64,000 nucleotides of DNA, taken from the IMG/VR virus record IMGVR_UViG_3300010938_000009, positions 1-64,000 of that record. One strand, given 5' to 3'. A program made the position numbers and the translations under genes. Every line of letters begins with the position of its first letter. Position 1 is the stretch's first letter. Below, piece by piece: positions 1-28,012 of the stretch. The notes under the pieces were generated by a model. It saw only the letters and a program-made list of their open reading frames with translations, ran no database searches and was not told the DNA's origin. The DNA is from a virus.

Positions 1-17
1 AAAAGAATTTAGCAATA

Positions 18-632
18 ATGTCTAGAGCTGGTTTCAGTGAGGTAGTTTTACCTTCTGCTAAAATTAATGAAATTTCTTATAGAGAAAATATTGATAATCA
101 AAGATTTAGTAAAGGTCCAGGATTAGTTACTTTTGAACCTGTTACTTTAAGAAGAGGCGTAACTTATCAAGAATCCAAAATTGGAAATAGTTCTAGTTTT
201 AAAAATCACGAAGCTAATAGAGATTTATATAGTTGGTATAAACAAGTAAACAATGACTCCTTACTATTTGGAGTAGCTCAAGAATTAGCTAGAGGTTCAA
301 TTAAACCTCCAAAACAAAATGAAAATTTTAGAAAAGAAGTTATTATCGTCGCACATAATAGAAGAGGAGAACCTGTAAAACAATGGGTTTTATTTAACGC
401 TTTTCCTATTGCTTATAAAGGTGGGGACGATTTTGACGCATCAGCAGATCAACAAAAATTAATAGAAGAAATAACATTAACTTATGAATTTTTTGTAGAA
501 TTAGGTGGAGATATAGTAAAAGGTTTTGCAAAAGAATTTGCAAGAGATGCTTTAGAAGCCACAGTAGACGTTATATCAGAAGCTGTGCATCAATTTACTT
601 CTGGAGCAAATGTTCCACCATTCTTAAGATAA
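18..632 (+). CDS. T4 gp19-like tail tube protein (probably starts upstream of the window)
   Basis: gp19 motifs GFSEV...YRE...PG..TFEPVTLRRGV...W...AFPIAYKG..FDA...IEEITLTYE; frame is open to the window edge. Confidence 0.85.
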   Translation: MSRAGFSEVVLPSAKINEISYRENIDNQRFSKGPGLVTFEPVTLRRGVTYQESKIGNSSSFKNHEANRDLYSWYKQVNNDSLLFGVAQELARGSIKPPKQNENFRKEVIIVAHNRRGEPVKQWVLFNAFPIAYKGGDDFDASADQQKLIEEITLTYEFFVELGGDIVKGFAKEFARDALEATVDVISEAVHQFTSGANVPPFLR

Positions 633-641
633 GGAGTTTTT

Positions 642-1235
642 ATCGCTCGCCCATCATCAAAAGATCCTATGGATAAATTTCGCTGGAGTATAGAAATAGA
701 AGGTTTTTCTAGATCTGGATTTTCTGCAGTTGAAGTTCCTAAAATGTCTATTAATACGCAATCTTATGCTGAAGGAGGAGCACACATGACTCCGAGACAG
801 ATTATTGATTCCGTACAATTTAGACCTATAACTCTTACAAGAGGTGTTACAGGCGACGGAGATTTTTACGATTGGGTTAAAGCACCTTTTAAATTATATA
901 GAGGTGATGTGGAAGTTGGAGCGCAATTTACAGGTAATGTTGGTTTAGGAGATTTTTCTACCAGTAAACCAATTAGATCAGGAGAATATAGAAGAAACGT
1001 AGTAATAAGTCATCTTGATAGATCAGGACGAGCTATTAAGCAATATATACTATATGACGCCTTTCCTATAGAATTTGAACCAGCTTCAGATTTTTCTGCA
1101 GATGGAGATGATACTTATAGTATGGAGAAAATAGTATTAGCTTATGAAAGTTTTGAAGTAGTTAATAACGGACAAAGTACTAATCCTTTTAGTATTTCTG
1201 ATGTATTAAAACGAGTTAGCAGACGAGTAGTTTAA
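642..1235 (+). CDS. Second gp19-like tail tube protein (likely ATC start at 642; first ATG at 669)
   Basis: DPMDKFRW.IEIEG...GFS.V...Y.EGG...ITLTRGV...AFPIEF...EKIVLAYESF; SD AAGGAG at 631-636 precedes an in-frame ATC. Confidence 0.85.
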   Translation: MARPSSKDPMDKFRWSIEIEGFSRSGFSAVEVPKMSINTQSYAEGGAHMTPRQIIDSVQFRPITLTRGVTGDGDFYDWVKAPFKLYRGDVEVGAQFTGNVGLGDFSTSKPIRSGEYRRNVVISHLDRSGRAIKQYILYDAFPIEFEPASDFSADGDDTYSMEKIVLAYESFEVVNNGQSTNPFSISDVLKRVSRRVV

Positions 1236-1254
1236 AAATAAACGAGGAGTAAAT

Positions 1255-2007
1255 ATGATAATACAATTACCTAACGGGTTAATTGATGGACAAGATCTAT
1301 TTAATTACGCTGAAATAGATGAATTAAGAGGTAAACAACAAAATTACCTAGCTAATAGAGAATTAGTGGATGGTAATATAGGTCATGTACCTAAAATACT
1401 AGCTGATGTAGTAAAGTCTTTACAAACAAAAGAAGGACTTGCTTGGCAAGGTAATATGGCCGATGCTATAGAAAAATTACCTATTGGTGATATAGAAACT
1501 TTATTAATAAAAATACGACAAAATACTTACGGACCTAGATTTTACTTAGAATCTAAATGCCCTCATTGTGAGTATCATAATAAAAATTTAAGAATAGATT
1601 TAGATACGCTAGAATTAGATGTTATTTCTATAGAAGATATGTTAAAACCTAAAAAAGTTTTAGCCACAAAATCTAATAAAGAAGTAGAATTTAAACCTGG
1701 TTATTTAAAAGATCTATTTAATATAATTAAGTTTGCTAAAAGTAAACAAGATAAATTAATCACTTCTTTTTTAGCCACAACTATTAAAAGAATTGGAGAT
1801 GATACTAAAAATATTGAAATTTTAGTAGAAGATCTACCTTCTTCTGATATAATGCAATTAAATGAAGAAGCTATGAAAATGAAGTTACAAGGGACGATAG
1901 ATACTAATATTAGTATTGATTGTGCAGGTTGTGCTAAAGAATATGAGGCGAAGTTAAACACTTTTGACGCAAGTTTTTTCGACCCTTCCAAGGGATCTAC
2001 GAGTTAG
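1255..2007 (+). CDS. Tail assembly chaperone (gp26/gpG-like, two CxxC)
   Basis: Lies between tube and tape measure genes; CPHC and CAGC motifs; IRQNTYG; ends ...SFF at a slippery site. Confidence 0.7.
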   Translation: MIIQLPNGLIDGQDLFNYAEIDELRGKQQNYLANRELVDGNIGHVPKILADVVKSLQTKEGLAWQGNMADAIEKLPIGDIETLLIKIRQNTYGPRFYLESKCPHCEYHNKNLRIDLDTLELDVISIEDMLKPKKVLATKSNKEVEFKPGYLKDLFNIIKFAKSKQDKLITSFLATTIKRIGDDTKNIEILVEDLPSSDIMQLNEEAMKMKLQGTIDTNISIDCAGCAKEYEAKLNTFDASFFDPSKGSTS

Positions 2008-2168
2008 ATTACACAAGCCACGAAACGGACCTCTTGGATGATTATGCATTTTTCGGCAAAATATTTCACTGGCAACCTAGTGAAGTAGATAATATGAAAT
2101 GGTCTTTTAGAAAAAAATTAAAACAAGCTTATAAGGACAGTCAGTCAAATATAACTGACAAAAAATAA
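1974..2168 (+). CDS. -1 frameshift extension of the tail chaperone (gpGT/gpE'-like)
   Basis: T TTT TTC at 1974-1980; -1 frame reads RPFQGIYELDY...AFFGKIFHWQPSEVDNMKWSFRKK..., stop overlaps the tape measure ATG (TAATG). Confidence 0.8.
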   Translation, partial: FFRPFQGIYELDYTSHETDLLDDYAFFGKIFHWQPSEVDNMKWSFRKKLKQAYKDSQSNITDKK

Positions 2169-4411
2169 TGGCAACAAAAACGATAGATATTGTAGTTAAA
2201 GTAAGAGACGTAGCTAGTAGACCTTTAAATGAAGTAGAAAAAGGTTTAAAAAGAACTGGAACTGCCGCTAAAAGTGCAGCTATAGATTTTACGCAACTTA
2301 ATAAAACATTATTTTCCGCAACAGCTTTTATAGGATTTTTCTCTAAAGCCTTTGGTGGAGTCCATAGATTAATTTCTGAAGGCGCACAAATTGATAGATT
2401 AGGAACTCAATTTGAAAGAGCTTTTGGAGATTCAGGAAATATTACTAACACTCTAGCTAAGTTTACTGATAATTTTATAGATAAATTTGAAGTTATGCGA
2501 CAAGGTATAGCTTTAAAATCTATGGGTATCGTCAGTAACACAGAACAATTAGCTTCTATAATGGCTAAAGCTGGTACTGCTGCAAAAATGGCTGGACTAG
2601 AATCAGCAGAAGGAGTTAAAAAGTTTGGAGAATTTTTAAAAGACGGATCAGTAAATCACTTACAATTTTTAAATATAATAGCTAAATCAAATCCGGCTTT
2701 ACAAGCTCAGTTAGCAATACTTCAGAAATCTGGAGGAGCTTTAGGTGGAGTACTGTCTACACAAGCAAAATTAGCTATAGGAACTAAATTACTAACAACT
2801 TTAACAAAAGGACAAATGTTTGGTAATATGGATTTAATGGACATTACAGGACACTTAAATCAATCTTTTAAATCCCTAACAACTTCTATAGGTAGATATC
2901 TAGGAGAAGCTTTAAAACCTTTATTAATAAAAACTTTTCAAGTATTTAATTCATTTTCAGAATTTTTAGATAAAATAAAAAAATCTGATAAAAATTTATT
3001 ATTTTTAACTAAAACAGTTTTAGTAGCTACTACAGCAGTAGCAGGATTAGTAGCTATTTTAGGTTCTTTAAGTTTATTAGTAAAATTACTAGGAGTTGCA
3101 GGATTTGGATTACCAGGAATGGTATACGGAATTCTGACTCTAGGGTCCGCTTTTTTAGGGATTACGGGTAAAGCTGATTCTTTTTTAGATAGACTAAAAA
3201 TTATGGGAGCATTTTTTAAAGGGATATGGCAATTATACAGTTCCTTTGATCCAGAAACAGGTTTCGGAAAAATAGACGAAAGTTTAAAAAAGTTTTTAGA
3301 AGAAAAAGGTTTAATGACTTTTGTAGAAACTATAGCAAAAGTTTTTTTAATGGTAAAAACTGTTATAAAAGATACTATAGATGTTTTATCATGGGCAGCA
3401 AAAGGAGTAGATAACTTTTTTGGTGGAATGGCTCAAAAAGTTATAGAAGTTTTAGATATTCTAAAAGGACCTTGGAGTAATTTTTGGGTTAAAGATAACG
3501 CAACAATGATGGAAAAAGCTGCACGATGGATTACAGTAGTAGCAGGTATTGCAGGAAGTATCGCAGCATTAATAGGCGGATTTAAAGTATTTAGTAAAGT
3601 AGCTTCAATGATTCCTGGTATGGGAAGATTTTTTGGCGGACGTGGCCCAAAAGGAACCAAAAATGATCCTCTATATGTTGTAGGATCTGGATTTGGTGGC
3701 CCTATTTTAGACAGCGAAAATTGGGTAGGAATGGGTAAAGGAAAAAAAGGTGGTGGAGGAATAGCAGGTAAGATTGGAGGCTTTTTTAGAGGTTGGAAAG
3801 GACCTGCAGCTTTAATGGCTGCAATGGAATTGCCAGAATTAATAAGCAATCTTTCTTCAGCAAATTCAACACAAGAAATGGTAGGAGCTGGAGCACAATC
3901 AACAGGTAGAATTGGTGGAGCGTTATTAGGAACAAAAGCAGGTGCAGCTCTAGGTGGAATGTTAGGATCAATAATTCCAGGATTAGGAACTATGATCGGA
4001 GCTGGTGTTGGAGGGTTTGTTGGAGGCGCTGCTGGATACGCTTTTGGTGGAAACGCTATGGAATCTTTAGCAAACTGGTTATACGAAAAAGTAACAGGAA
4101 AAGATGCTGATTCTAAAAAATCCGAAGCAACAGTACCAGCAATGCCAGAAACAGAAGAATCTAAAATAGATTATATAGCAAAAGAAATGCAAGCAAGAAC
4201 ATTAGAAGAACAAGAAAAGATCAAATCAGCCACGGAATCAGCCTTAAGATCTAGTTCAGAAGGCGGAAAAACAATATCAGAAGATGAGTGGCGTCACATA
4301 ATGATATTAGTAGGAAAAATAGCTTCTACTAATGAAGAAATGGCTAAAAAAGAAGAAGTAACAACAATATCTTCAAAATACGGTGATAGATCACCAGCTT
4401 TCTCTGGATAA
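2168..4411 (+). CDS. Tape measure protein
   Basis: N-terminal IVVKVRDVAS.PL, helical Ala/Gly-rich body, G...PLYVV motif, GxxxG repeats; position after chaperone. Confidence 0.85.
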   Translation: MATKTIDIVVKVRDVASRPLNEVEKGLKRTGTAAKSAAIDFTQLNKTLFSATAFIGFFSKAFGGVHRLISEGAQIDRLGTQFERAFGDSGNITNTLAKFTDNFIDKFEVMRQGIALKSMGIVSNTEQLASIMAKAGTAAKMAGLESAEGVKKFGEFLKDGSVNHLQFLNIIAKSNPALQAQLAILQKSGGALGGVLSTQAKLAIGTKLLTTLTKGQMFGNMDLMDITGHLNQSFKSLTTSIGRYLGEALKPLLIKTFQVFNSFSEFLDKIKKSDKNLLFLTKTVLVATTAVAGLVAILGSLSLLVKLLGVAGFGLPGMVYGILTLGSAFLGITGKADSFLDRLKIMGAFFKGIWQLYSSFDPETGFGKIDESLKKFLEEKGLMTFVETIAKVFLMVKTVIKDTIDVLSWAAKGVDNFFGGMAQKVIEVLDILKGPWSNFWVKDNATMMEKAARWITVVAGIAGSIAALIGGFKVFSKVASMIPGMGRFFGGRGPKGTKNDPLYVVGSGFGGPILDSENWVGMGKGKKGGGGIAGKIGGFFRGWKGPAALMAAMELPELISNLSSANSTQEMVGAGAQSTGRIGGALLGTKAGAALGGMLGSIIPGLGTMIGAGVGGFVGGAAGYAFGGNAMESLANWLYEKVTGKDADSKKSEATVPAMPETEESKIDYIAKEMQARTLEEQEKIKSATESALRSSSEGGKTISEDEWRHIMILVGKIASTNEEMAKKEEVTTISSKYGDRSPAFSG

Positions 4412-15389: not shown

Positions 15390-18095
15390 ATGTCATTACG
15401 CTTTAACACATTCAGAAGCGCTAGATACTTACGTACCCGTTTTGTGGAAGGCCGTTTCCTCTTAGCATCAGAAAACACTGACCTTGAATTAGAAATTATC
15501 GATCAACTTAGACAACACATAAAAAATACTGTAGGCGACATAGCAATTAAAAATGCTTGGAAAGTTCAAAGATATTCTGATACAGAACTTTTAGTTAGTC
15601 CTGGAGAGGCATGGGTATCGGGGATACCATTTATTATGAGATCTGGAAAAGATCAACTAGTATCTGGAGATTCTCTAAGTCTCGGTATAACTCCTGTAGG
15701 AGTAACTATATCTGATGAACCTACTGGTTTAGGTAAACTAATAGCTTTTAATAGTGGAGGTACTACTCCTACTGACGAATATAGAATAGTTATTACTGCT
15801 AGAGAAGAAGCTATTACTAACGTAGAAGACCCTTTTCTAAAAAATGCTAACTTAGCAGAAACTACAGCTCAGAAAATAAGACTTACTTATAAAATAGATA
15901 TAGTATCTGAATCTGACCAAAATATTAGTCCTATACCTTATACTAACGACACTAGTGATCAAAATTTAACTAATAAAATAATAGTCAATCCTACTATAGG
16001 AGGTAATGGTGAATTAATTTCTATTACTCCATTATCAGGTTCAGAACAAATTGACGGTAGAGATTTAGAAATAATTTTACGCAATGATCCAACTTTAGGC
16101 GGCGGTAATCCAATTCCAAATGGAACTACAGACCAACAAGCTTTTTTCAATGGTAAATTATTAGACAGTTTAGGCAATCAATACCATATTAACGCTATAT
16201 TCAATGATACAGTTAGTACGCAAGTTGTTATAAGATTAGATAAAGAAGTAAATCAACCTAACCCTACTATAAATAACGGTTCGCCAATAACTCTACTTAA
16301 GAGAGATATTTACGTTACAGACGATATTAATGGTTCACCTCAAGGCAAACTATTTTACCCTATAGCAAAAGTAGACTGGCACCAAAGTTTAGGAATAGTT
16401 CATGACTCAAGAGTTTCAGATTTAAGAAAATCTGTAGATCGTTTATTAGATTACCAAGACAAAACAAATATAAAATATGATTTAAGATTAACAGGCGGCG
16501 GAGATATAAGTTTTGAAGCTCCTACTGCTAATATGCTACAATGGAGCGCAGATCTAGAATTAGTTAACCCTCACGGGCTAACTCAAAATATTCCGGCTAA
16601 TACACTAGCTATAATGGAAGGTGGTTCAGTAGCTTACGATATGAATGTAGATGCTGGAGGAGTAATTGCTAGAGGTAATTTAGCTGTTACTGCTGTTAAT
16701 ACAGGTACTAATATAGTATTAGCTGCTGCTCCAGATTTAAGTTTAGTAAGACTAGGTAATATCTTTAAAGTAGGTAGTGAACTAAAGTATATTACTGCTA
16801 TTGACGACGTATCTAAAACTATTACTATAGATAGCGCTACTTCTACTACAGGAGCTGCTACAATTTATAGAGATAGTTTTGCTCCTACTTACGCTCCTTT
16901 AAGTTCTGATACTTTTATATTAGCTGTTAGAAAGGGCGACCAAGTTTACTTTGACGGAGCTTTAGAACTAGAGTCAGGAGAGATTAACGACCTAGGAGAC
17001 GGTATAAGCGTAGCTTTACTAGCTTTTATAGGAGCTACTGGAGAAACAGATTCTAACCCTTTTTATACTTCTACTAACGTAGTAGTACAAGGTAGTTCAT
17101 TAGTAGCAGCTATTAGCGCTCTAGATGATATAGTATTTCCTCTTACTCAACCTATTTACGATGAAAGAATTTTATTTCCTACAGGTTTAGCTGCTTTAAG
17201 TAACATTACAATACCTTTAAATAGTAGAAATGGTAACCAACAAGAAACTTACGGAGTTGGTTCAGGCGAACTAATGGTATTTCATAACCAATTATTAAAA
17301 TTTGAAGGAATTGATTGGAACCCAGTTGATAATCAAACTATAAAATTTACTTACGATTTAACTGATGACTCTGAAATACACTTTAGAAAAGGACCTTTTG
17401 GCGGCGGCTCAGGAGGCGGCTCAACTAGTTTACAAGGAGCTTATAATAACGGTAGAACAATTACTACTACTTTAGGCAATCCAATAGAAATTAACGGAAC
17501 TCCTGGAGATAAACTGTTAGTTATTAATGGAGACTTAGAAGTTACGGGAGTTATTGACCCTACAGCTATTCAATTTATTCCTCAAGCAATGAACCCTTTA
17601 AGTGGTACTCAAAGAGGTATTTGGGTTAATAATACTGACCAATTAATTTTTGAACCAGTTTCTAACCCTGCAGTAAATATTACTCAGAAATTAGAAGATT
17701 TAGAATCAGGTACAGCTACTAAAGCTATAGTAGAATATTATTTAAATTCTTCAGGTAGCACAATTCCAGCAGGTACTCCAGTATATAGCCCTGTAGCAGG
17801 AGAAATAGCTCCAGCTAACGGAAATAATAACGACAAATCAAGATTACTTGGAGTTACAATAGAAGAAATATTAGATTCTCAAAATGGTAAAGTAGCTGTA
17901 GCAGGAATAATAGAAAATATTACAGGATTTACTCACAATAAATATTTATATTTAGATCAAAATGATGGATTAATGGTTGATGAAGAACCAGAATTACCAA
18001 CATATTCATCAGGATTCAATGTAGTTATAGTAGGATTAGTTCAAGGAACGAACTTAATTTTACGACTACAACACGTAGGTCGATTATCCGACTAA
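15390..18095 (+). CDS. Tail fibre attachment/structural protein (DUF6519/DUF4815-like N-terminus)
   Basis: Y....F.EGR.L..SE..D; V.PG.AWV.G; multiple beta domains; follows the baseplate wedges. Confidence 0.6.
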   Translation: MSLRFNTFRSARYLRTRFVEGRFLLASENTDLELEIIDQLRQHIKNTVGDIAIKNAWKVQRYSDTELLVSPGEAWVSGIPFIMRSGKDQLVSGDSLSLGITPVGVTISDEPTGLGKLIAFNSGGTTPTDEYRIVITAREEAITNVEDPFLKNANLAETTAQKIRLTYKIDIVSESDQNISPIPYTNDTSDQNLTNKIIVNPTIGGNGELISITPLSGSEQIDGRDLEIILRNDPTLGGGNPIPNGTTDQQAFFNGKLLDSLGNQYHINAIFNDTVSTQVVIRLDKEVNQPNPTINNGSPITLLKRDIYVTDDINGSPQGKLFYPIAKVDWHQSLGIVHDSRVSDLRKSVDRLLDYQDKTNIKYDLRLTGGGDISFEAPTANMLQWSADLELVNPHGLTQNIPANTLAIMEGGSVAYDMNVDAGGVIARGNLAVTAVNTGTNIVLAAAPDLSLVRLGNIFKVGSELKYITAIDDVSKTITIDSATSTTGAATIYRDSFAPTYAPLSSDTFILAVRKGDQVYFDGALELESGEINDLGDGISVALLAFIGATGETDSNPFYTSTNVVVQGSSLVAAISALDDIVFPLTQPIYDERILFPTGLAALSNITIPLNSRNGNQQETYGVGSGELMVFHNQLLKFEGIDWNPVDNQTIKFTYDLTDDSEIHFRKGPFGGGSGGGSTSLQGAYNNGRTITTTLGNPIEINGTPGDKLLVINGDLEVTGVIDPTAIQFIPQAMNPLSGTQRGIWVNNTDQLIFEPVSNPAVNITQKLEDLESGTATKAIVEYYLNSSGSTIPAGTPVYSPVAGEIAPANGNNNDKSRLLGVTIEEILDSQNGKVAVAGIIENITGFTHNKYLYLDQNDGLMVDEEPELPTYSSGFNVVIVGLVQGTNLILRLQHVGRLSD

Positions 18096-18306: not shown

Positions 18307-20049
18307 ATGGCTCAAAGAACAAGGTTAGCTGCGGTACTCAACGGGTTAGTCCGTAATGTAGACCTAACAGCAGACGAATTAGTAGTCAATTCGGTACGAT
18401 ATGGCGGTTTAGCTGGTACAGAACTAACTAAAACTATTTTAGATAGTTTAATAGCCAACTCTCACGCTGCAATGTCTGATAATCAGAACATAGTAGCTGG
18501 AGATGGATTAACAGGTGGCGGTTCGGGCGCAACAGTAACATTAAACGTAGGCGCAGGTTCTGGTATTACAGTTAACGCTAACGATATCGAAGTTAACAAT
18601 ACAGTAATTAGAACTAACGGAGCAAATGCTTTTTCTGCAAACCAAAGCATGGGTGGATTTAAGTTAACTAACTTAGCTACTCCTACTTCAGGAACAGACG
18701 CAGCTAATAAAGCTTACGTTGATAGCGCTGCAGGAACTTTAGGAGAATGGCAAAATTCTGCTTTAGATTATATAGTAAACAATACTCTAGCTCCTCCTAC
18801 AGAAGTATTAGGCGATAGATACATTCTATCTCATGATGGTGGAGTACCTCACGCTAATTATGATGGCGCTAGTGCTGGAGATATCGTAGAATTTAACGGT
18901 TCAGTTTGGGTAGCTACTACTCCTAGTATCGGATTCTTTATATCTTCTGATAATGACGCTGATAGATTATACTATTGGGGCGGAACAGCTTGGGAAGAGA
19001 AATTTTTCGAGAATACAACAGCTAGTACAGGTTTAACTAAGGTTGGTTCGGATATTAGATTAGACGCTTCTTCTGCTGGAGCCGGATTAGGTTTTTCTTC
19101 AGGAGTACTTAGTGCTAATGTTGATAACAGTACTATTGAAATTAACTCTGATACTTTAAGAGTTAAAGACTTAGGTATTACTACAGCTAAATTAGCTGAT
19201 GACTCTGTAGATAAAGATAAAATTAACGCTAACGTAGCTGGTAATGGTTTAGGTCAGAACGTAGACGGTTCACTAGAAGTTAAAGTGTCAGCTTCAGGCG
19301 CTATTATAATTAGCTCTGACGCTCTACAAATTAACTTAGAAGCTAGTAACCCCTCTCTACAAATTTCTAGTAATGAACTAGGATTAAAATTTGACCCTGC
19401 AGGAGCCTTAAGTAAAGTAGCTGCTGGAGTTAAAGTAAACGTAGACGATAGTTCTATCGAGATTGCTTCTAACGCTCTTAGAGTTAAAGCTGCTGGTATA
19501 ACTAACGCTATGTTAGCAGGTAGTATTGAAGATTCTAAATTGAATCAGATTACTACTGCTAATAAAGTAGCAGGTTCTGCGGTACAATTAAATTCTAATG
19601 CTTCTATTAGTAATGACTCAGGTTTAAAAGCTAATCATGTTCCTATGATTAAAATTCCTGGAATTGCTGGGGAAGCATTCGCCGCAAATACTACTTTCGC
19701 AGTAAGATTCGCTAAAGACGGAGAAACTGCTGGAAGACTTTATAAAGCAGATTTTGACGCTTCTACTGATGATAATTTTTACGTAATAGGAGTTATTCAA
19801 CCTAGTTCAGCTTTAAGTGCTGGTGATCCTATTGACTATATTATTCAAGGTGAAGTAGCTTTACTAGCTAATGATTCAGTTTTTGCTGCTGCTGAAATTG
19901 GAGAACCCGTTCATTTATTAGCTTCTGGAGCTTTTGACGCTCTTGCAGCTATTACTTATACTGCTAACAAAGCTTCTGTAAAATTTGCAATGGTAAAAAC
20001 AACATCAAGTATGTTGATTCAGTCAATGCAGTTCTATGGAATAAATTAA
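18307..20049 (+). CDS. Tail fibre-like protein
   Basis: AG.GL.GGG, KLTNLATPT..TDAANKAYVD, VD.S.IEI.S..LRVK..GIT repeats. Confidence 0.75.
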   Translation: MAQRTRLAAVLNGLVRNVDLTADELVVNSVRYGGLAGTELTKTILDSLIANSHAAMSDNQNIVAGDGLTGGGSGATVTLNVGAGSGITVNANDIEVNNTVIRTNGANAFSANQSMGGFKLTNLATPTSGTDAANKAYVDSAAGTLGEWQNSALDYIVNNTLAPPTEVLGDRYILSHDGGVPHANYDGASAGDIVEFNGSVWVATTPSIGFFISSDNDADRLYYWGGTAWEEKFFENTTASTGLTKVGSDIRLDASSAGAGLGFSSGVLSANVDNSTIEINSDTLRVKDLGITTAKLADDSVDKDKINANVAGNGLGQNVDGSLEVKVSASGAIIISSDALQINLEASNPSLQISSNELGLKFDPAGALSKVAAGVKVNVDDSSIEIASNALRVKAAGITNAMLAGSIEDSKLNQITTANKVAGSAVQLNSNASISNDSGLKANHVPMIKIPGIAGEAFAANTTFAVRFAKDGETAGRLYKADFDASTDDNFYVIGVIQPSSALSAGDPIDYIIQGEVALLANDSVFAAAEIGEPVHLLASGAFDALAAITYTANKASVKFAMVKTTSSMLIQSMQFYGIN

Positions 20050-20059
20050 GTTTAAATTC

Positions 20060-20082
20060 AGGGAGCTTTATGCTCCCTATTT
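20060..20082 (+). terminator. Rho-independent terminator/stem-loop
   Basis: AGGGAGC-TTTAT-GCTCCCT followed by ATTT, after the fibre gene. Confidence 0.55.
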
Positions 20083-20095
20083 AACGAGGATTATA

Positions 20096-20401
20096 ATGGC
20101 TAAATTTTTAAAACTAGTAAACGGTATACCTAGAATGGTTGAAGTAGGCGCTGGAGATCCAGCCTATGACGAATCATTATATTACAATTCAGGTCTAGCA
20201 GCAAATACTAATATAACTTTACCTAATAGTGGAAGTTTTAGTGACGCTTCAGCTAAAGATTTACTAGTTATACTTAACGCTACAGTAGTAGAAGTTACAA
20301 GAGACTTTGAAGTTGTAGGCGCAGGTCCTACTTATACTCAAATAAAATTTATTTACGATTTACCCAATGATTCGGTTGTTCGTTTCAAGAAAAATATTTA
20401 A
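20096..20401 (+). CDS. Small structural protein; standalone copy of a domain in 15390..18095
   Basis: P.YDE....GLAA..NIT.P...IKF.YDL..DS...F.K shared with 17151-17390. Confidence 0.65.
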   Translation: MAKFLKLVNGIPRMVEVGAGDPAYDESLYYNSGLAANTNITLPNSGSFSDASAKDLLVILNATVVEVTRDFEVVGAGPTYTQIKFIYDLPNDSVVRFKKNI

Positions 20402-20403
20402 TA

Positions 20404-20595
20404 ATGTCATTAAAAGAAGCTTCTAATACTCAATACTGGAATACTATTCCTAAGAAATGTAAAAATTGTATTAAAGCTATTTATACTAAAGAAGAAAATA
20501 AAACGTATTATCAATGTAGTATGTATGGAAAATTTAAAAAAGATTGCAATTTAAAAGTACAGGAAAGGAAACTACCTAAGCCTGAAGAAATTTAA
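20404..20595 (+). CDS. Small Cys-rich hypothetical protein
   Basis: CKNC...C...C, 63 aa. Confidence 0.45.
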   Translation: MSLKEASNTQYWNTIPKKCKNCIKAIYTKEENKTYYQCSMYGKFKKDCNLKVQERKLPKPEEI

Positions 20596-21006
20596 TTCTA
20601 TTACTCCCAATGCTATAATATATATTTGGGTGATGGTGGAGATAGTCTAAAACCTATTAAAAGTAAAAATATTTTAACAAATGAAATAAAATTTTTACGA
20701 TTCTATAGCTCAAGCTACTTCTGAAATATTTAACAAAAATGGAATAATTAGAACTCTAAAAGGCAAAAAGCTTATTTATAAAAATCATTTATGGTATTAT
20801 TTAGATAATGATTTTAAAAAAATAGAAAAAAGAGTCTACACTAAAACAAAAAAATTAGAAGAATTGATATAAATACAAAAGAAATCGTGATATACAAATC
20901 AATGTCAGAAGCTGCTAGAGCAGGATTTGATAGAAAATCTATATATTATTGTTGCATTAAATCCCAAGAATTTCATAGAAATTTTTATTGGGAATATGAA
21001 ATTTAA
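20593..21006 (+). pseudogene. Decayed homing endonuclease (GIY-YIG tail plus two NUMOD1 repeats)
   Basis: Frameshifted fragments YNI..GDGG, KPIKSKNILTNEIKF/YDSIAQA...YKNHLWYY and IDINTKEIVIYKSMSEAARAGFDRKSI..CC...HRNFYWEY. Confidence 0.7.
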
Positions 21007-21022
21007 TAAAAGGAGATAACAA

Positions 21023-24000
21023 ATGCCTCAAATTCCATCAAGTCAAGGAAGCCCTCAAGCGTCGAATATCGCCGTGCAAGGTGCTCTACCTTTAATTGGT
21101 ACGCCGTCTAGAGAAAACGGACAATCAGTTCTAAATTCTATAGATGCGTCATTAGCCAAACTATATGAAGATCGTAATGTACTACTAGCAGGTGGAGGTA
21201 ACATAACCTTTACAGGCACTCAACTACAATTTACTGAAGATCTTTTTATACATATAAATTCACAAGTAGGTGGAGGTACTCCTACTGTAATTAATCTAGG
21301 AGCTGCTACTCTAGATCTATCTGCTAATAATCGTATGGCTTATGCAGTTATTGATAGAGATCTAGGTACAGGTACTATTACTGATGACTCAGCTACTCTC
21401 CCTGCTGTACTAGCAGCTAACGTAGAAGTATTTCTAATAGCTAAACGTATAGATAATGCAGACGCTACTAAAAGAGTTTACTTTCTAGATGGTAGCACTA
21501 TAGGCGAAGGCGGTACTTCTAAATTATATGCTGGCGGTTCAGGTAGCTCTACTTTAATAGTTAAAGATGAGGGTACTAATGTAGATACAGCCGTAACAAC
21601 TTTAAATTTTACTGGAGCTGGAGTTACAGTTACTAACCCTAGTGCTGGAGTAGTTGATATAAATATTTCAGGAGGCGGTTCTGGAGGCGGAGGAGGCGGA
21701 GGAAGTCCTGAAGATCTTCTTACAAGAGAAGAAGCTGGACAATTACCTACTCAAATCCCTAATACTATAATCGATCCTTTTAATAATGAAGTCGGTGATA
21801 ATTCTAATAGAACCAATACTGAAGAAGTTCAATCTGCTCTTAGATTAGTAGTAGGTCAAACTACAGGCTATAAAGAATATGAATTTGAAACCTCTACGAA
21901 TCCAATTGCTAATGTAGATGGAAGAATTAGAGCGGTTATTCCTGCTTACGCTCCAATAGCTGAAGCGATTTCAGGAAACTTAATTAAAATAAGCGGTAAT
22001 GTAACTAATATCTTCAGTACTGCTAGTAAAATCATAATCGCTAAACAAATAGATCAATTAGGAAGAGATAATTATATACATTTAATTGATACCGATAATA
22101 AACCTGCGGTATTGGCTTTAAGTAACGTAACTTATAATAGCGGTACAGGTAATACTGAATTAACCGTAACTAATCCCAACTCTTTAGATTTAGACATGGG
22201 TATTTCAGCGGCTAATATTCCCGAACAATTAAGAGTATTTCCGTACAGTTTAACCGTAGAAGCTTCAGGCAATGGTTTAGCTAACTTAGAAGAACTTGAA
22301 TTAGATGATGCTCATGCTATTGATACCGTAAGCATTCCTGGTGAAAATACTTTAAGACAAATTGGAAGTCTTTCTGGGAGTATTCAAAGAACCGATTATG
22401 CTAGATCTCCAAACGGTCAATATTTTGTAATAAGAGCACTAGAAAAAACATCAGGGAATTCACTTTTTCACTGGTTTTATTCTGTAGACAGAGGTCAAAC
22501 ATGGACAAAATTTCCAACAACAAAAAGCAACAACATCGATCAAGGAGATGAACTAGGAGATAATCTACACAACTTACATTCTGGTCAAATAGTTGTTTCT
22601 AATAATGGAAAAATGTTTAGCACTTATTCGTTTTTTAACACTGTGTATGAAATTAGAGGAGTGTACGCCGATTTAACAGCAATGACTCCTACACTAACAG
22701 ACACAGCAGACCATGGAGCTGGAGCAGGAATAATTCATCAATACGGTGCGTTCGATAAAACGGCTCAAGTTGCAGCAGATTTAACTGATTTAAGTTTTAT
22801 TGCCGTATTATCAAAACAAGCTAGCAGTGAAAATTTTAGAATAAGATGGTTTTCTAATGGAGGAGCTACTAATTTAGGAGCTTTAACTTCTGATGTTACT
22901 CATAACCCTTCTACAAGTATCGCTGGATTTTGGATATCCGGCACTAGTCCCAATAGAAGAACACATGTGGTTTATAGAAATAGTGCTACTAGTATTTTAT
23001 ATAACAGATATACAGAAGGAAACTATAGTACCGCTACGGTTTCTGGAACTACTGTACATTCAGGAAATAGGACCATAATAGGATTTGGATCTAATTCAGA
23101 TTATGGATTAATTCTTTTTAGAGACTCTTCTAATCTTCCTTATTTTAGACATATTAATAATTCTTCAGAATCTATTTCATCAGAGTTTTCTTTAAGTAGT
23201 TTGGCAACAGACTTGTTTACAGGAACAGGAACAGAGGGGGATAAAACTCTTCATAAAGTTATAAACGGAAGGGTTAAATTCAGAACGAACACTCATGCCT
23301 TTATATGCTTAGATATGGTTCACCCAGACGGGGTGAGAAGACCTCATATATTTGAAGTGCAGGATATTACGAGTTATCAGGGAGAACACTTAACTCACAC
23401 TTCTGTTGCGGCACCAACTGAAACATTCAGAACTAATTCTTCAGAGCAACAAAAAAGCATGACGTTTTTAGCTAATGCTAACAGGGTTAGATCAATCACC
23501 GTAAGATTAAATAGTAACGGGATTATCGGACCTGGATACGAAATGCAAATGAAACTTTATGCAGTAACTCCAAACAATAATACAGGATTGCCTACAGGAG
23601 CAGTATTATATGTTTCAAATAATAAAATAGACCCTAATCTTTTAACTAAAAGTTCAAGTGGACAAGATGTTACCTTTAATTTTGATAATGTTAGTTTAAC
23701 AAACGGTTCTTATTATGCGTACGTTCTAGAAGGTACTCAGCCAATTGACGCTACAAACTTTGTAAAAGTATTTGGTGGCATTTCTTCTTATGCCGACGGT
23801 AGTGGTGGGAATTATAACGGTACATCATGGAGCGGATCTACATTTGATGCCTATTTTAGAATTAGTGGGGACTACAACAGAGAAATAGGAAATGCAGAAT
23901 CTTCTTCAAATTCAGTTTCCGGAGTAACTTTAGACAACTCTGAATCTCAAATAGAGATTATTGATTCAAATCAAATTCAATTTATTACCAGAAAAGAATT

Positions 24001-25129
24001 AAGACCTCTTAATGCAGATTCTTGGAAACCGTCTACCGGACATCCTTATAGAAGAGTTATTAATTTAAGTAACACTTTAGGTACTCAATCTACATACACT
24101 AATTTAGTACAAGCTGCTTATAAAGATTTTGATCCTTATTTAATATACAATGTAAGTCACGGTGGGGATGATTCTAACCGAATCAATATGACTACAGGAG
24201 CTTTAGAGGCTTCAGGTGTTGAAGGTGAAGACCGCTCAGGATGGAATCACACACTTTCAGCAGGTTCTACTCCAACCAGAACGACAAATGCTTCTTTTTT
24301 ATCAGGCTTTTGTACTGATTTTAACGGAAGTTCTCACTATAGAGCATATACTGATATGCATGGGTTTGACTTATATTCTTCCAGAGCTTTTGCTATAGAA
24401 GTCGAAGTACTTCCTGATGTCGTAACAGGCGGAGTTATGATTAGCCACTATGAAGTAGGGGGCGGTAATACGAGAGGGTGGGAGTTTAAATTCCTACCAG
24501 GCGGTGCTATTAGATTTTTAGCCGCAAACACTTCGGGCACAACATTAGCCGATGCGCAAACGAATACAGGATTTGCAACGGTTTCAACTTATCAGATTTA
24601 TAGAGTTATTTATTTAGGAAATAATACAGCTCCAAAAATATATAAATCATCCTCCCCAACGGGAACTTTTACAGAAGCGACGTATGCGTCTACTACTGCC
24701 TTTGTTTCAGGAAATACAGCATCAGCAGCAGAACTTGTTGTTGGAGCAAGAGGGGGATCTTCTAAATCCGAGTTTTATGATGGAAAAATAGGCTATACCA
24801 AGTTTATTAATGGTTCTTCTACTTTTGTTTATAACGGATTTAAAAACCAAGCTCCTGTAACCCAAATCCAAAACTTAGGTTCGAGTGTAGTAGGTGAACA
24901 ACAAATTGGACAAAACCGATCAACTCAAGATACTTTAGGTAACTATGACCGATTAGCTCAGTCTCGTCAAGACCGATCTTTAGTTGATACATTAGATCAA
25001 TATTTTGTTTATAAAAAAACAGGTATGACTAATACAGGTAACAAACCTGCTTTAAAAGTGACTCTTAATCGAGTTTCAAATGATGACCAAAAACGACTTC
25101 CTGGTCTAATTATGAAATGGGAAAAATAA
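21023..25129 (+). CDS. Large tail fibre/receptor-binding protein (Asp-box, LamG-like domain)
   Basis: VKDEG.......LNFTGAGVT; Gly linker; SVDRGQTW Asp-box; DFNG...F.IE..V...GWEF...L.VG...F.GKI LamG-like region. Confidence 0.75.
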   Translation: MPQIPSSQGSPQASNIAVQGALPLIGTPSRENGQSVLNSIDASLAKLYEDRNVLLAGGGNITFTGTQLQFTEDLFIHINSQVGGGTPTVINLGAATLDLSANNRMAYAVIDRDLGTGTITDDSATLPAVLAANVEVFLIAKRIDNADATKRVYFLDGSTIGEGGTSKLYAGGSGSSTLIVKDEGTNVDTAVTTLNFTGAGVTVTNPSAGVVDINISGGGSGGGGGGGSPEDLLTREEAGQLPTQIPNTIIDPFNNEVGDNSNRTNTEEVQSALRLVVGQTTGYKEYEFETSTNPIANVDGRIRAVIPAYAPIAEAISGNLIKISGNVTNIFSTASKIIIAKQIDQLGRDNYIHLIDTDNKPAVLALSNVTYNSGTGNTELTVTNPNSLDLDMGISAANIPEQLRVFPYSLTVEASGNGLANLEELELDDAHAIDTVSIPGENTLRQIGSLSGSIQRTDYARSPNGQYFVIRALEKTSGNSLFHWFYSVDRGQTWTKFPTTKSNNIDQGDELGDNLHNLHSGQIVVSNNGKMFSTYSFFNTVYEIRGVYADLTAMTPTLTDTADHGAGAGIIHQYGAFDKTAQVAADLTDLSFIAVLSKQASSENFRIRWFSNGGATNLGALTSDVTHNPSTSIAGFWISGTSPNRRTHVVYRNSATSILYNRYTEGNYSTATVSGTTVHSGNRTIIGFGSNSDYGLILFRDSSNLPYFRHINNSSESISSEFSLSSLATDLFTGTGTEGDKTLHKVINGRVKFRTNTHAFICLDMVHPDGVRRPHIFEVQDITSYQGEHLTHTSVAAPTETFRTNSSEQQKSMTFLANANRVRSITVRLNSNGIIGPGYEMQMKLYAVTPNNNTGLPTGAVLYVSNNKIDPNLLTKSSSGQDVTFNFDNVSLTNGSYYAYVLEGTQPIDATNFVKVFGGISSYADGSGGNYNGTSWSGSTFDAYFRISGDYNREIGNAESSSNSVSGVTLDNSESQIEIIDSNQIQFITRKELRPLNADSWKPSTGHPYRRVINLSNTLGTQSTYTNLVQAAYKDFDPYLIYNVSHGGDDSNRINMTTGALEASGVEGEDRSGWNHTLSAGSTPTRTTNASFLSGFCTDFNGSSHYRAYTDMHGFDLYSSRAFAIEVEVLPDVVTGGVMISHYEVGGGNTRGWEFKFLPGGAIRFLAANTSGTTLADAQTNTGFATVSTYQIYRVIYLGNNTAPKIYKSSSPTGTFTEATYASTTAFVSGNTASAAELVVGARGGSSKSEFYDGKIGYTKFINGSSTFVYNGFKNQAPVTQIQNLGSSVVGEQQIGQNRSTQDTLGNYDRLAQSRQDRSLVDTLDQYFVYKKTGMTNTGNKPALKVTLNRVSNDDQKRLPGLIMKWEK

Positions 25130-25168
25130 CGGAGATTAAAAATATCAAGATTAATCAAACAAGACTAA

Positions 25169-25579
25169 ACAGGAACTACTAAAATAGTTAAAATTGGAAG
25201 TAATGCGGCTGGATCTAGTTTCTATGATGGAAGACTAGGATATTTTAAATTTAATAACGGATCTTCTACATTTAATTATCCTGGTTGGTATTCTCAAGCT
25301 CCTGTTACGAATATTCAAAATCTTGGAACTAGCATTTTCGGAGAGCAACAAATTGGTAATAACTTAACTACTCAAAATGCTACTTCGGGTAACTATAACC
25401 GTCTTGTAACATCTCAATCTGACCGCTCTAAGGTAGATGCGTACGAGTTATATGCTACTGTGGCTAAATCCATGACAAATACAGGTAATGAAACTTCGGT
25501 AAAAGTAACTATGAATAGACAATCGAATAACAATGAATCATCTATTCCTGGTTTAATATTTAAATTCGAAAAAGAATAA
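25169..25579 (+). pseudogene. Orphan alternative C-terminus of the tail fibre (136 codons, no start)
   Basis: FYDGRLGYFKFNNGSSTF...QAPVTNIQNLG...GEQQIG...GNYNRL...MTNTGN...KVTMNR...PGLIFKFEKE* parallels the fibre C-terminus in the same frame. Confidence 0.85.
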
Positions 25580-25639
25580 TCCAAAACAGCAATTGATGGT
25601 TCTAATATGGAAGGTTATAACGTAAGGTTTAATAAATAA
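25580..25639 (+). pseudogene. Second, shorter orphan fibre C-terminal remnant
   Basis: SKTAIDGSNMEGYNVRFNK* aligns with ...ESSIPGLIFKFEK and ...QKRLPGLIMKWEK; same frame. Confidence 0.5.
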
Positions 25640-25642
25640 CTC

Positions 25643-25671
25643 TTGCTATAATAACTACTATAACGTATAAT
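25643..25671 (+). promoter_or_regulatory. Sigma70-like promoter
   Basis: TTGCTA-N17-TATAAT upstream of the ferritin and endolysin genes. Confidence 0.5.
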
Positions 25672-25672
25672 T

Positions 25673-25852
25673 ATGAAAGATATTGTAGATAAAAAGTCTA
25701 GGTTACTGTTTTGCTATGACAACCTTTATAATATGTATAAAAGGAATTATATAAAAAGGTTTAAAGATTTAAAACTAGTAACTTTTAACTTAACTTTTGA
25801 ACAAATAAACGGCATTAGAAAAAAACGGCAAAGAAGAATTACTGAGGAGTAA
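25673..25852 (+). pseudogene. Short ORF resembling an HNH homing-endonuclease fragment
   Basis: LYNMYKRNY..R.....FNLTFEQ resembles the pre-HNH helix; catalytic part absent. Confidence 0.35.
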
Positions 25853-25855
25853 ACA

Positions 25856-26281
25856 ATGGAACAAATAGCTTTTATTAAACCTATTATAGCTTTAAGAGTA
25901 TTACAGTTATATTACCATAACGCACACTTACTAGTTAAAGGACCTACCTTTCTAAGTGATCATAACTTACTAAGTGAGTTCTATAAAGGTATAGAACTAG
26001 AGTTTGATAGCCTATCAGAATATATGATAGCTACTTTAGGTACTAACAGTTATGATACTGTAGCTATAGCTAATATACTATCAGAAAAACTAGCTATGCT
26101 AGGTCCTGCTTATAATGATACTACTATGATGTACTCTGTAGCTCTACAACTAGAACAAGAACTACAAGCTACTCTAATAGAACTAAATAGCCAAGCTACT
26201 CTAGGTTTACAGAACCTAATAGGAGCTATAGCAGAAGCTAGTGACATTAGAAAATATAAGATTCAACAAAGAGTTAGTTAA
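25856..26281 (+). CDS. Ferritin-like/Dps-like protein
   Basis: YH.AH..VKG.TF..DH.LL.EFY......D.L.E; G..NL...I......Y. Confidence 0.75.
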   Translation: MEQIAFIKPIIALRVLQLYYHNAHLLVKGPTFLSDHNLLSEFYKGIELEFDSLSEYMIATLGTNSYDTVAIANILSEKLAMLGPAYNDTTMMYSVALQLEQELQATLIELNSQATLGLQNLIGAIAEASDIRKYKIQQRVS

Positions 26282-26727
26282 TGAGTAATAATACTTGGTT
26301 AATTTCTAAATACTTTACAGAAAAAGAAGTAAATCCAAATAATTACCCATTAACAGAAGAACTAAAGCAGAACTTACAGAAACTAATAATTAAAATGGAC
26401 GTAGTAAGAGATACTTTAGGTAAACCTATAATAGTTACTAGTTGTTTAAGAGCTTTAGCTGATCAACAAAGAATTAACCCTACAGCTCCTAAATCAGCTC
26501 ACCTAGAAGGTTTAGCAATAGATTTTGTAGTTAAAGGTATGACAGTAGACGAAGTGTTGGATATATTGCAACCTTCTTGTCATATTATGGGATTTGCTCT
26601 AGAAAATAACGGTTCAGTAAAAAGAATAAAAGAAAATGGAGGTAACGTAAGCCAACCTAGAAATTGGGTACACTTACAAGTTAAACCTCTAGCTAGGCCG
26701 CCTCAGTGGCGGATTTTTAACCCTTAG
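26281..26727 (+). CDS. Peptidase M15 endolysin
   Basis: VR..LG.PI.VTS..R...N...S.H..G.A.D...WVHL zinc-peptidase motif. Confidence 0.85.
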   Translation: MSNNTWLISKYFTEKEVNPNNYPLTEELKQNLQKLIIKMDVVRDTLGKPIIVTSCLRALADQQRINPTAPKSAHLEGLAIDFVVKGMTVDEVLDILQPSCHIMGFALENNGSVKRIKENGGNVSQPRNWVHLQVKPLARPPQWRIFNP

Positions 26728-26788
26728 TAATTATAGTTTACGGCCTAAACGATTATAATTATTAAAATTGTACAATTGGAGGAATTAA

Positions 26789-27271
26789 ATGAGCGCACTA
26801 AGTTTAAAGAAAAAGCTCGCTCGTAGAGAGAAATACGTACAGCAAGTAGCTGACGGTTTTGATTTCATTAACAAAATAAATCAAAGAGAAGAAATTCTAG
26901 AGGACTCTCCTGGAGCTTTAAAATTAATGAGAGGAATTCAAAGACGATTAGATTCAGATTTCGGTTTACAAGGATTAGCTAAAGAACCGCCTTTATCAGT
27001 AAAACTACAAGCAGACTTAGAAAGAATTGACTTTGGAGTAAGTGATTTTGGAATTCGAGCTACTTTAGCTGCTGGACTAATAGAAAAATTAGGTATTCAA
27101 CCTAATGATAAGATTTTAGTATTACAAGGAGACTTAAAAGGAATGTACTTAAACGTAGTTTCTCTAGAGTCTGCTACAGAATTAAGATTAGAAGACGTAG
27201 CTAGTTTTGTACTAGAAACTAACGTACAACTAAGAGCTGACCTTTCGGCAGAAAAGAAAAGCTACTCTTAA
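26789..27271 (+). CDS. Hypothetical protein
   Basis: 160 aa ORF with SD GGAGGA. Confidence 0.6.
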   Translation: MSALSLKKKLARREKYVQQVADGFDFINKINQREEILEDSPGALKLMRGIQRRLDSDFGLQGLAKEPPLSVKLQADLERIDFGVSDFGIRATLAAGLIEKLGIQPNDKILVLQGDLKGMYLNVVSLESATELRLEDVASFVLETNVQLRADLSAEKKSYS

Positions 27272-27321
27272 TATTACAATAAAATAAGAAAAGCCGACCA
27301 CCAATGAAGGTAATCGGCTCG

Positions 27322-27371
27322 AAAGGCTTCAAACTACTAAATACTCCTCGGAAGTAGTTTGGGGCCTTTTT
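27322..27371. terminator. Terminator at the convergence of the two gene blocks (possibly bidirectional)
   Basis: AAAGGCTTCAAACTACT...AGTAGTTTGGGGCCTTTT stem with G-U pairs; second hairpin at 27292-27319. Confidence 0.7.
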
Positions 27372-27630
27372 ATTTATTAATTTCAATTACATTTGTAGCG
27401 CAATTAATTTCTTTTATAGAACCATAAATAGATTGACAGTTTTTTAATTTCATACCACAAAAGTTTTTAGAATAACTTTCGCATACAATATAACCTACAT
27501 TCATAATAAAAAAAGACTTAGGCGGCTTATCAAGAAATTGGTAAGTCGCTTTTTTTATTTCTGCAGCGTTAAGGTAAATTAAACCTCCGCCGACACTCAA
27601 CACAAATAACAATAATAACCTTTTTAACAT
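27370..27630 (-). CDS. Signal-anchored Cys-containing small protein
   Basis: N-terminal hydrophobic segment, 4 Cys. Confidence 0.55.
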   Translation of the reverse strand: MLKRLLLLFVLSVGGGLIYLNAAEIKKATYQFLDKPPKSFFIMNVGYIVCESYSKNFCGMKLKNCQSIYGSIKEINCATNVIEINK

Positions 27631-27646
27631 TTATAACTCCCTTAAG

Positions 27647-28012
27647 TTATTTATTAGGAATAGTAGGTTGATACAAAGGGCAGAACTTATAATGCATATC
27701 ACTATAAGTAGTTTCTCCTAATCCGCACTCACAAAGACCTATTCTATCACTTTTATAATCTCTTTCAGTACCTAGAAATGCTTCTCCTGGTCTAAACTCT
27801 TTATCTACTAGCTTTTCTATCATATCTTTAGTACTATAATAAGGTCCTATACTACAACTAGACTTAATAGTATCTACTTTGTATAGGTCTTCTTTAACTT
27901 TAGTAAGTATTATATAATTAACTCCTTTACGTAGTATAGTGTAGTACTTTAATACTTTCTTTTCACCTACAATCCAATTAGTTAAGTAAGTAGTAGCTTC
28001 AGTATTAGTCAC
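27647..28012 (-). CDS. Hypothetical protein with C-terminal CxCG-H-CP putative zinc motif
   Basis: CECGLGETTYSDMHYKFCPLY. Confidence 0.55.
   Translation of the reverse strand: MTNTEATTYLTNWIVGEKKVLKYYTILRKGVNYIILTKVKEDLYKVDTIKSSCSIGPYYSTKDMIEKLVDKEFRPGEAFLGTERDYKSDRIGLCECGLGETTYSDMHYKFCPLYQPTIPNK

Follow-up and report, generated by a model that had tools for sequence, protein, structure and literature searches.

Probable remains of gutted tandem fibre genes behind the main tail fibre gene of an uncultured phage

The main tail fibre gene of IMG/VR record IMGVR_UViG_3300010938_000009 lies at 21023 to 25129 on the + strand, where the ORF list makes it the last gene of a baseplate and fibre block with baseplate-wedge and tape-measure genes upstream. 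The record has 104,283 bp at 31% G+C and carries a 55-bp terminal overlap or repeat typical of k-mer overlap; the window, by which we mean the whole stretch of DNA analysed, is its first 64 kb. The fibre is 1368 aa long and its gene ends in TAA (25127 to 25129), after which the same frame continues through 3 pieces. A stub of 12 codons reads RRLKISRLIKQD and then stops (25130 to 25168). Orphan 1 is a stop-to-stop frame of 136 codons (25169 to 25576, stop at 25577 to 25579) in which the sole ATG, GTG, or TTG is about 100 codons in, leaving no usable start near the 5′ end. Orphan 2, directly behind that stop, has 19 codons reading SKTAIDGSNMEGYNVRFNK and its own stop (25580 to 25639). All pieces are on the + strand, all the stops between them are TAA, and all 3 are absent from the standard ORF list, in which the next ORF starts at 25673. 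The original prediction, made from the letters alone, had described a same-frame continuation past the fibre stop that the ORF track misses; both points are borne out and the coordinates are confirmed.

The surroundings have features of their own. Directly after the orphan 2 stop there is a promoter-like site, TTGCTA-17-TATAAT (10/12 matches, 25643 to 25671), ending 1 nt before the ATG of a 59-aa ORF at 25673, which suggests that a new transcription unit begins there, possibly with a leaderless mRNA. On the other side of the fibre gene, the gap at 20596 to 21022 between a 63-aa ORF and the fibre start contains start-less fragments of homing-endonuclease DNA-binding regions. The fragment at 20845 to 21003 matches Pfam NUMOD1 with E = 1.4 × 10−4 and 22.5 bits against a cut-off of 22.8, and the one at 20690 to 20869, which Pfam does not match, looks similar by eye in its F.S..(E/Q)A... 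pattern. The gap may mark past gene conversion, driven by an endonuclease, beside the fibre. No insert of this type stands between the 111-aa gene and the first fibre of the related phage L008 described below.

The fibre has no Pfam or PHROG match in single-sequence searches. Its residues 234 to 1368 align with the fibres of 2 related contigs, L008 and L009, at 31% to 32% identity, and a HMMER profile search of 1.84 billion representatives defines a family of 70 proteins, mostly 1000 to 2250 aa long, that end in motifs such as NQSSIQGINFRFNK. In 70/70 library representatives a conserved module sits at the C-terminal end or at most about 10 residues from it; in the window's fibre, the alignment with orphan 1 and the family places it in the last ~125 aa (24752 to 25126). 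No family protein contains a second significant module. The best full-length relative of the fibre is 36% identical, so the fibre's lineage is otherwise unsampled. Blastn and tblastn against phage GenBank records find no relatives in cultured phages, IMG/VR has no close relatives by queries with orphan 1, the fibre end, or their alignment, GTDB genomes give no family matches, and a protein atlas returns only unnamed viral clusters with scores of at most 0.90. Of two scans of metagenome contigs, the first was empty and the second yielded L046 and L047, both short; using the upstream 580-aa gene or full fibres as queries returned 2 module-bearing contigs already known and no new ones. Neither Pfam nor PHROG has a model of the family, and none of its members is cultured.

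The domain ahead of the module was approached by modeling the last 340 fibre residues with AlphaFold2 (model m60a9042e6352). Model residues 1 to 250 form a confident jelly roll with pLDDT mostly above 90, and the last ~90 residues are of low confidence, with pLDDT between 50 and 78. Foldseek aligns the model with lectin-like jelly rolls at E ~10−6, a generic similarity of fold. A sequence profile, A2, matches neurexin and laminin LG domains with a whole-sequence E = 3 × 10−7, no single stretch passing by itself. With the fold and the LG profile similarity both found, the predicted domain preceding the module, at about aa 1029 to 1280 (24107 to 24860), is a LamG or concanavalin-A-like lectin domain.

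In the module tree, a class of fibres of ~1,170 to 1,240 aa and a longer class are intermixed, as in the sister pair P0004 and P0030, and the C-termini of the 2 fibre genes of L008 lie close together. By this tree, modules seem to group by genome rather than by gene class, which suggests that modules of tandem fibres in one genome co-evolve or swap between the 2 genes. The family also includes short ORFs starting with M that hold the module alone or LamG plus module, namely P0025 (139 aa, on a 29-kb contig), P0062, P0032, P0019, and P0020 (285 aa, on a 50-kb contig); these may represent additional orphans carried by other phages. The starts of P0025 and P0062 differ by no more than a few residues from that of orphan 1. 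P0033 (183 aa) is, from WAGSIEYFKL on, the same in alignment as the end of P0036, with a different and signal-peptide-like N-terminus, and is either a chimera joined exactly at a conserved motif or an assembly chimera.

Orphan 1 (25169 to 25579 with its stop) is a paralog of the fibre end. BLASTP gives 71/121 identities (59%) at E = 2 × 10−47, and all the motifs that the original prediction had listed for a start-less paralog of 136 codons appear in the alignment. In the module tree, orphan 1 and the fibre's own module are sisters, with SH-aLRT support of 95. Against a family HMM built without the 2 copies of the window, it scores 131 bits, compared with a median of 126 for the family and 144 for the active tip. 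It contains the whole module, preceded by the end of a LamG-like domain. Its homology begins in the last strands of the jelly roll, and because it starts inside that fold, it is not a self-contained domain or folding unit.

At the DNA level the 2 copies are 61% identical, differing at 155 of 402 positions, with no exact run longer than 11 nt. This bears on whether an assembler might have joined strain variants of the fibre end, a concern raised by the origin of the record in a metagenome assembly with a k-mer-like terminal repeat of 55 bp. The shared runs are far below any assembler word length, copies 61% identical are not strain variants, and the junctions come with a sensible ribosome-binding site and stub, so that an artefact of this kind is hardly credible.

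No decay is seen in orphan 1. Stretches of 136 open codons arise by chance with P ~2 × 10−5 at the local base composition, and the other 5 frames of the same stretch contain between 5 and 23 stops. The codon adaptation index of 0.615 and GC3 of 0.19 are as in the fibre, and all the family-invariant residues are present. By the NG86 method, the comparison of fibre end and orphan 1 gives dN of 0.35 to 0.42, dS of 1.25 to 1.38, and dN/dS of 0.25 to 0.34. A stop would be created by 4.7% of the single substitutions possible in orphan 1, and the frame would still be open with P = 0.5 at 0.035 and P = 0.05 at 0.15 substitutions per site. Set against dS of at least 1.2, these figures mean that nearly all the divergence of orphan 1 built up under coding constraint and that any silent period was short; on this reckoning, the neutral share of the divergence would be a small part at most. 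The stub supplies a rough clock for the silent period, having one point lesion in 39 nt, provided that its TAA came with a deletion junction. Scaled to orphan 1, that rate would give ~10 substitutions and an open frame with P ~0.55 to 0.6, hence an undecayed orphan 1 fits a young pseudogene.

An intact frame with native codon usage and every family-invariant residue could also mean that orphan 1 is still expressed, from ATA at 25184 or ATT at 25193 after an AGGA at 25171 to 25174, as a small protein that could be a fibre-associated or assembly factor in the manner of the ATG-started P0025 and P0062; module-only ORFs starting with M do exist elsewhere. Against this, the orphan has no ATG, GTG, or TTG near its 5′ end, the AGGA is weak, with 9 nt between it and a start codon that is itself very poor, and a product beginning in the last jelly-roll strands would come without the other ~200 residues of the domain. 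We regard expression as very improbable.

The frame itself invites one further reading, in which read-through or recoding joins all the pieces into a fibre of ~1,538 aa. All the pieces are in the fibre frame and the stops separating them are all TAA, but TAA is the commonest stop of the long ORFs of this phage (71 TAA, 16 TGA, and 11 TAG) and all 3 stops are in use. The sole tRNA is a tRNA-Met, so there is no suppressor, and 3 successive events would be needed. A scan of 20000 to 28000 finds no relevant Rfam element, and the family, as noted, has no member with 2 modules. A continuous product can be given next to no credence.

Between the fibre stop and orphan 1, the stub has the look of a gene start. 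GGAG (25131 to 25134) begins 1 nt past the fibre stop and is followed by 7 nt (ATTAAAA) and ATA (25142 to 25144), where an intact gene would have ATG. This is the spacing that the phage uses for its own genes, with GGAG-ATAACAA-ATG at the fibre, that is GGAGATAACAA-ATG, and GGAG-ATAATA-ATG at the gene at 15390. From the ATA to the TAA (25142 to 25168) the stub encodes residues SRLIKQD in positions 2 to 8, and these resemble family N-termini, scoring 17 by BLOSUM62 against GKIQKQD of P0030. A score at least as high against the 53 family N-termini is reached by 1.8% of random genomic 7-mers and by 2.4% of real gene N-termini from this genome. The suggestion of the original prediction that this is a dead gene start is therefore supported by the geometry of the ribosome-binding site and by N-terminal likeness, the latter at p ~0.02 over 7 residues. 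Judged from these letters, the dead start would most simply be that of a second fibre gene, and the GGAG its ribosome-binding site.

Relatives can be examined at the same place in the 4 module-bearing contigs L008, L009, L046, and L047. L008 (IMGVR_UViG_3300003890_000014), a related uncultured phage of 112.8 kb, has the same gene order as the window. Homologs of the 580-aa gene (41% identity) and of the 101-aa gene (37%) precede 2 complete fibre genes, one of 1639 and one of 1200 aa, which have 37% identity with each other and each carry the module at the end. In L046, the start of a second family fibre (MGTNKHIPELNFKGGG...) comes 5 nt past the first stop, with the remainder cut by the contig end. 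The second fibre gene in L008 and L046 begins 5 to 11 nt after the first fibre stop, and both have a GGAG at or beside that stop with the ATG 5 to 8 nt further on. In L009 an unrelated gene of 669 aa comes after the only fibre, and L047 is too short to show the downstream arrangement. L046 is a 3.7-kb metagenome contig, and its first fibre (2 to 3470) is split into 2 overlapping frames near 2100 to 2161, by either a frameshift or a sequencing error, with the second fibre start directly behind it at 3483 to 3671.

Hence a second family gene is found at the position of the orphans in relatives, and is complete in at least one of them, L008, the copy in L046 being cut by the contig. The original prediction had itself named a separate intact second fibre gene in relatives as the alternative to an archive of fibre tips, and in these distant relatives that is the arrangement found. 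Taking the second genes of L008 and L046 together with the ribosome-binding site and stub at the same place, the best reading of orphan 1 is the 3′ end of a second gene that has been gutted.

Whether 19 codons can be recognized as a third terminus was decided by a tail HMM made from the last 19 family columns of 69 homologs, with the window's fibre left out, and applied to the C-terminal 19 aa of every stop-terminated segment in the genome, 4,623 in total. Second of the 4,623 is orphan 2, with 20.9 bits and E = 7 × 10−5, behind orphan 1 in first place with 23.0 bits, and the active fibre's own end scores lower, at 10.6. The rank shows that the 19-aa piece is a real third terminus, as the original prediction had it. 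The nearest tails to orphan 2 are those of P0054 (9/19 identical) and P0035 (8/19), with 4/19 for orphan 1 and 3/19 for the fibre, and it comes from another branch of the fibre family. It has no conserved 5′ block.

The main interpretation offered by the original prediction was that fibre tips had been displaced serially, as at Rhs and CDI loci, with recombined 3′ ends pushing the former tips of the same fibre downstream, where they are kept as a store. The incoming 3′ ends would stem from recombination with related phages, and orphans so kept may be a reservoir that can be fused again to the fibre by deletion between direct repeats, altering host range. Several observations are in its favor. 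Start-less fragments are ordered behind a full gene in one orientation and one frame, the shared frame having a chance of ~1/27; the conserved FYDG-GY-KF block is still present at the 5′ end of an undecayed orphan 1; short module-only ORFs from other samples (P0025, P0062, and P0032) have a similar start point; orphan rhs-CT ends reportedly recombine into the main gene in Salmonella (Koskiniemi et al. 2014, PMC3967940); the decayed homing-endonuclease remnant just upstream of the fibre is a possible past driver of gene conversion; and the available relatives are distant. On the other hand, the blocks proposed for recombining a tip back in are conserved as protein only, and with 61% DNA identity and at most 11 identical bases in a row they offer too little for efficient homologous exchange. 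Orphan 2 is without the conserved 5′ block, the stub separating orphan 1 from the fibre is the start of a gene, which a second gene would be expected to show, and relatives have a second fibre gene at this place, whole in L008. No orphan-like tip was found at the end of a fibre among the 1.84 billion representatives, where the lineage has no close relative and the best full-length match is 36% identical, or by a word-index protein search of orphan 1 against longer proteins, whose empty result is weak evidence. We consider serial displacement unlikely, and the idea of displaced tips held as a recombination store is not supported, given the tandem second genes of relatives and the gene-start stub. 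Nothing here favors a deletion that would join the fibre with orphan 1, and orphan 2 is not capable of such a fusion.

Machinery for exchange was sought in the whole 104-kb record. The original prediction had seen no invertase in the window, and this extends to the entire record, where no serine recombinase (PF00239), no tyrosine recombinase or integrase, and no reverse transcriptase (RVT_1) was found by searches that were positive in control genomes. No specific inverted repeats flank the region, only weak scattered ones. A variant of the archive idea is that module-only fragments are kept on purpose, orphan 1 being a selected silent cassette and P0025, P0062, and P0032 instances of the same habit. 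Such a cassette would be joined to a fibre body where the LamG-like domain ends in conserved sequence, during co-infection or by rare deletion between the direct repeats. We hold this to be improbable; if true, selected cassettes would amount to an Rhs-like archive of receptor-binding tips in phages.

The reading we prefer, with a probability of roughly 0.6, is that the orphans are the remains of downstream tandem fibre paralogs, gutted by deletions and silenced. The locus would once have had 2 or 3 tandem paralogous fibre genes, each ending in the family module, and the downstream copies would have been gutted in the phage of the window. The second gene would have left its ribosome-binding site, its start changed from ATG to ATA, ~8 to 12 N-terminal codons, and its last 136 codons as orphan 1, with the stop of the stub at or near the deletion junction and ~1,050 codons missing. 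A further, more divergent copy would be represented by its last 19 codons alone, as orphan 2. The fragments lack a start codon and probably yield no protein. The loss would be recent, accounting for an intact orphan 1, and the divergence would date nearly all from the time when both copies were working coding sequences. Broken or truncated family members exist elsewhere, in the frameshifted fibre of L046 and the 285-aa ORF P0020 on its 50-kb contig. We infer the order of these events, their mechanism by deletion, and the lack of expression, and the tandem state likewise for the lineage of the window, its relatives being distant at 31% to 41% aa identity and L009 having a single fibre.

Some observations sit less well with gutting by deletion. 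That all the pieces are in the fibre frame is not predicted by pure deletion. P0025, P0062, and P0032 start near the point where orphan 1 starts, which hints at a preferred breakpoint, a pattern more in keeping with displacement guided by homology than with deletion at random. The same stub would result from a donor fragment made up of a fibre end plus the start of the next gene, and the likeness of the stub to family N-termini rests on 7 residues.

Read as the remains of gutted tandem genes, the locus is a scar of gene decay in which a family of large fibres was duplicated in tandem and then pruned again, and tandem gain and pruning would be ordinary turnover of phage host-recognition genes. 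Annotators should label the 136-codon frame a pseudogene fragment, not a gene. If the fragments were instead maintained and reused, they would constitute a viral archive of receptor-binding tips that works without a recombinase, in parallel to Rhs and CDI.

Several known systems place extra fibre or toxin ends beside a main gene. The mtd gene of Bordetella phage BPP-1, with its VR and TR, resembles the window in having a repeat of the fibre 3′ end just downstream. A diversity-generating retroelement was rejected as the explanation here, since the record has no RVT_1 reverse transcriptase and the 155/402 differences fall on all 4 bases and are not specific to template adenines; moreover, the repeat in the window is ~400 nt long and codes for a full paralogous domain. 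The G segment of Mu with Gin, the C segment of P1 with Cin, and Pin of e14 likewise place alternative fibre C-termini beside the fibre gene. In those switches, crossover sites enclose cassettes of inverted orientation, and a serine invertase is required. An invertase switch was rejected in turn, as all the copies of the window are on the + strand in direct orientation with no specific flanking inverted repeats, and no PF00239 resolvase-family gene occurs in the record.

Rhs and CDI loci accumulate orphan C-terminal modules by serial displacement. The window shares with orphan rhs-CT and cdiA-CT regions the start-less 3′ fragments in the same orientation behind a full gene, the first of which keeps a conserved piece. 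It differs in that no immunity-like partner gene follows each orphan, the DNA identity is too low to recombine, with 11 nt at most, and a gene-start stub separates the main gene from orphan 1, with no sign of exchange found. L008 shares the fibre family and the upstream genes, and it has a second fibre gene a few bases past the first stop, with both genes ending in the same module. What sets the two apart is that the genes of L008 are whole, while in the window the second gene is missing its start codon and ~1,050 codons, and the third terminus amounts to 19 codons.
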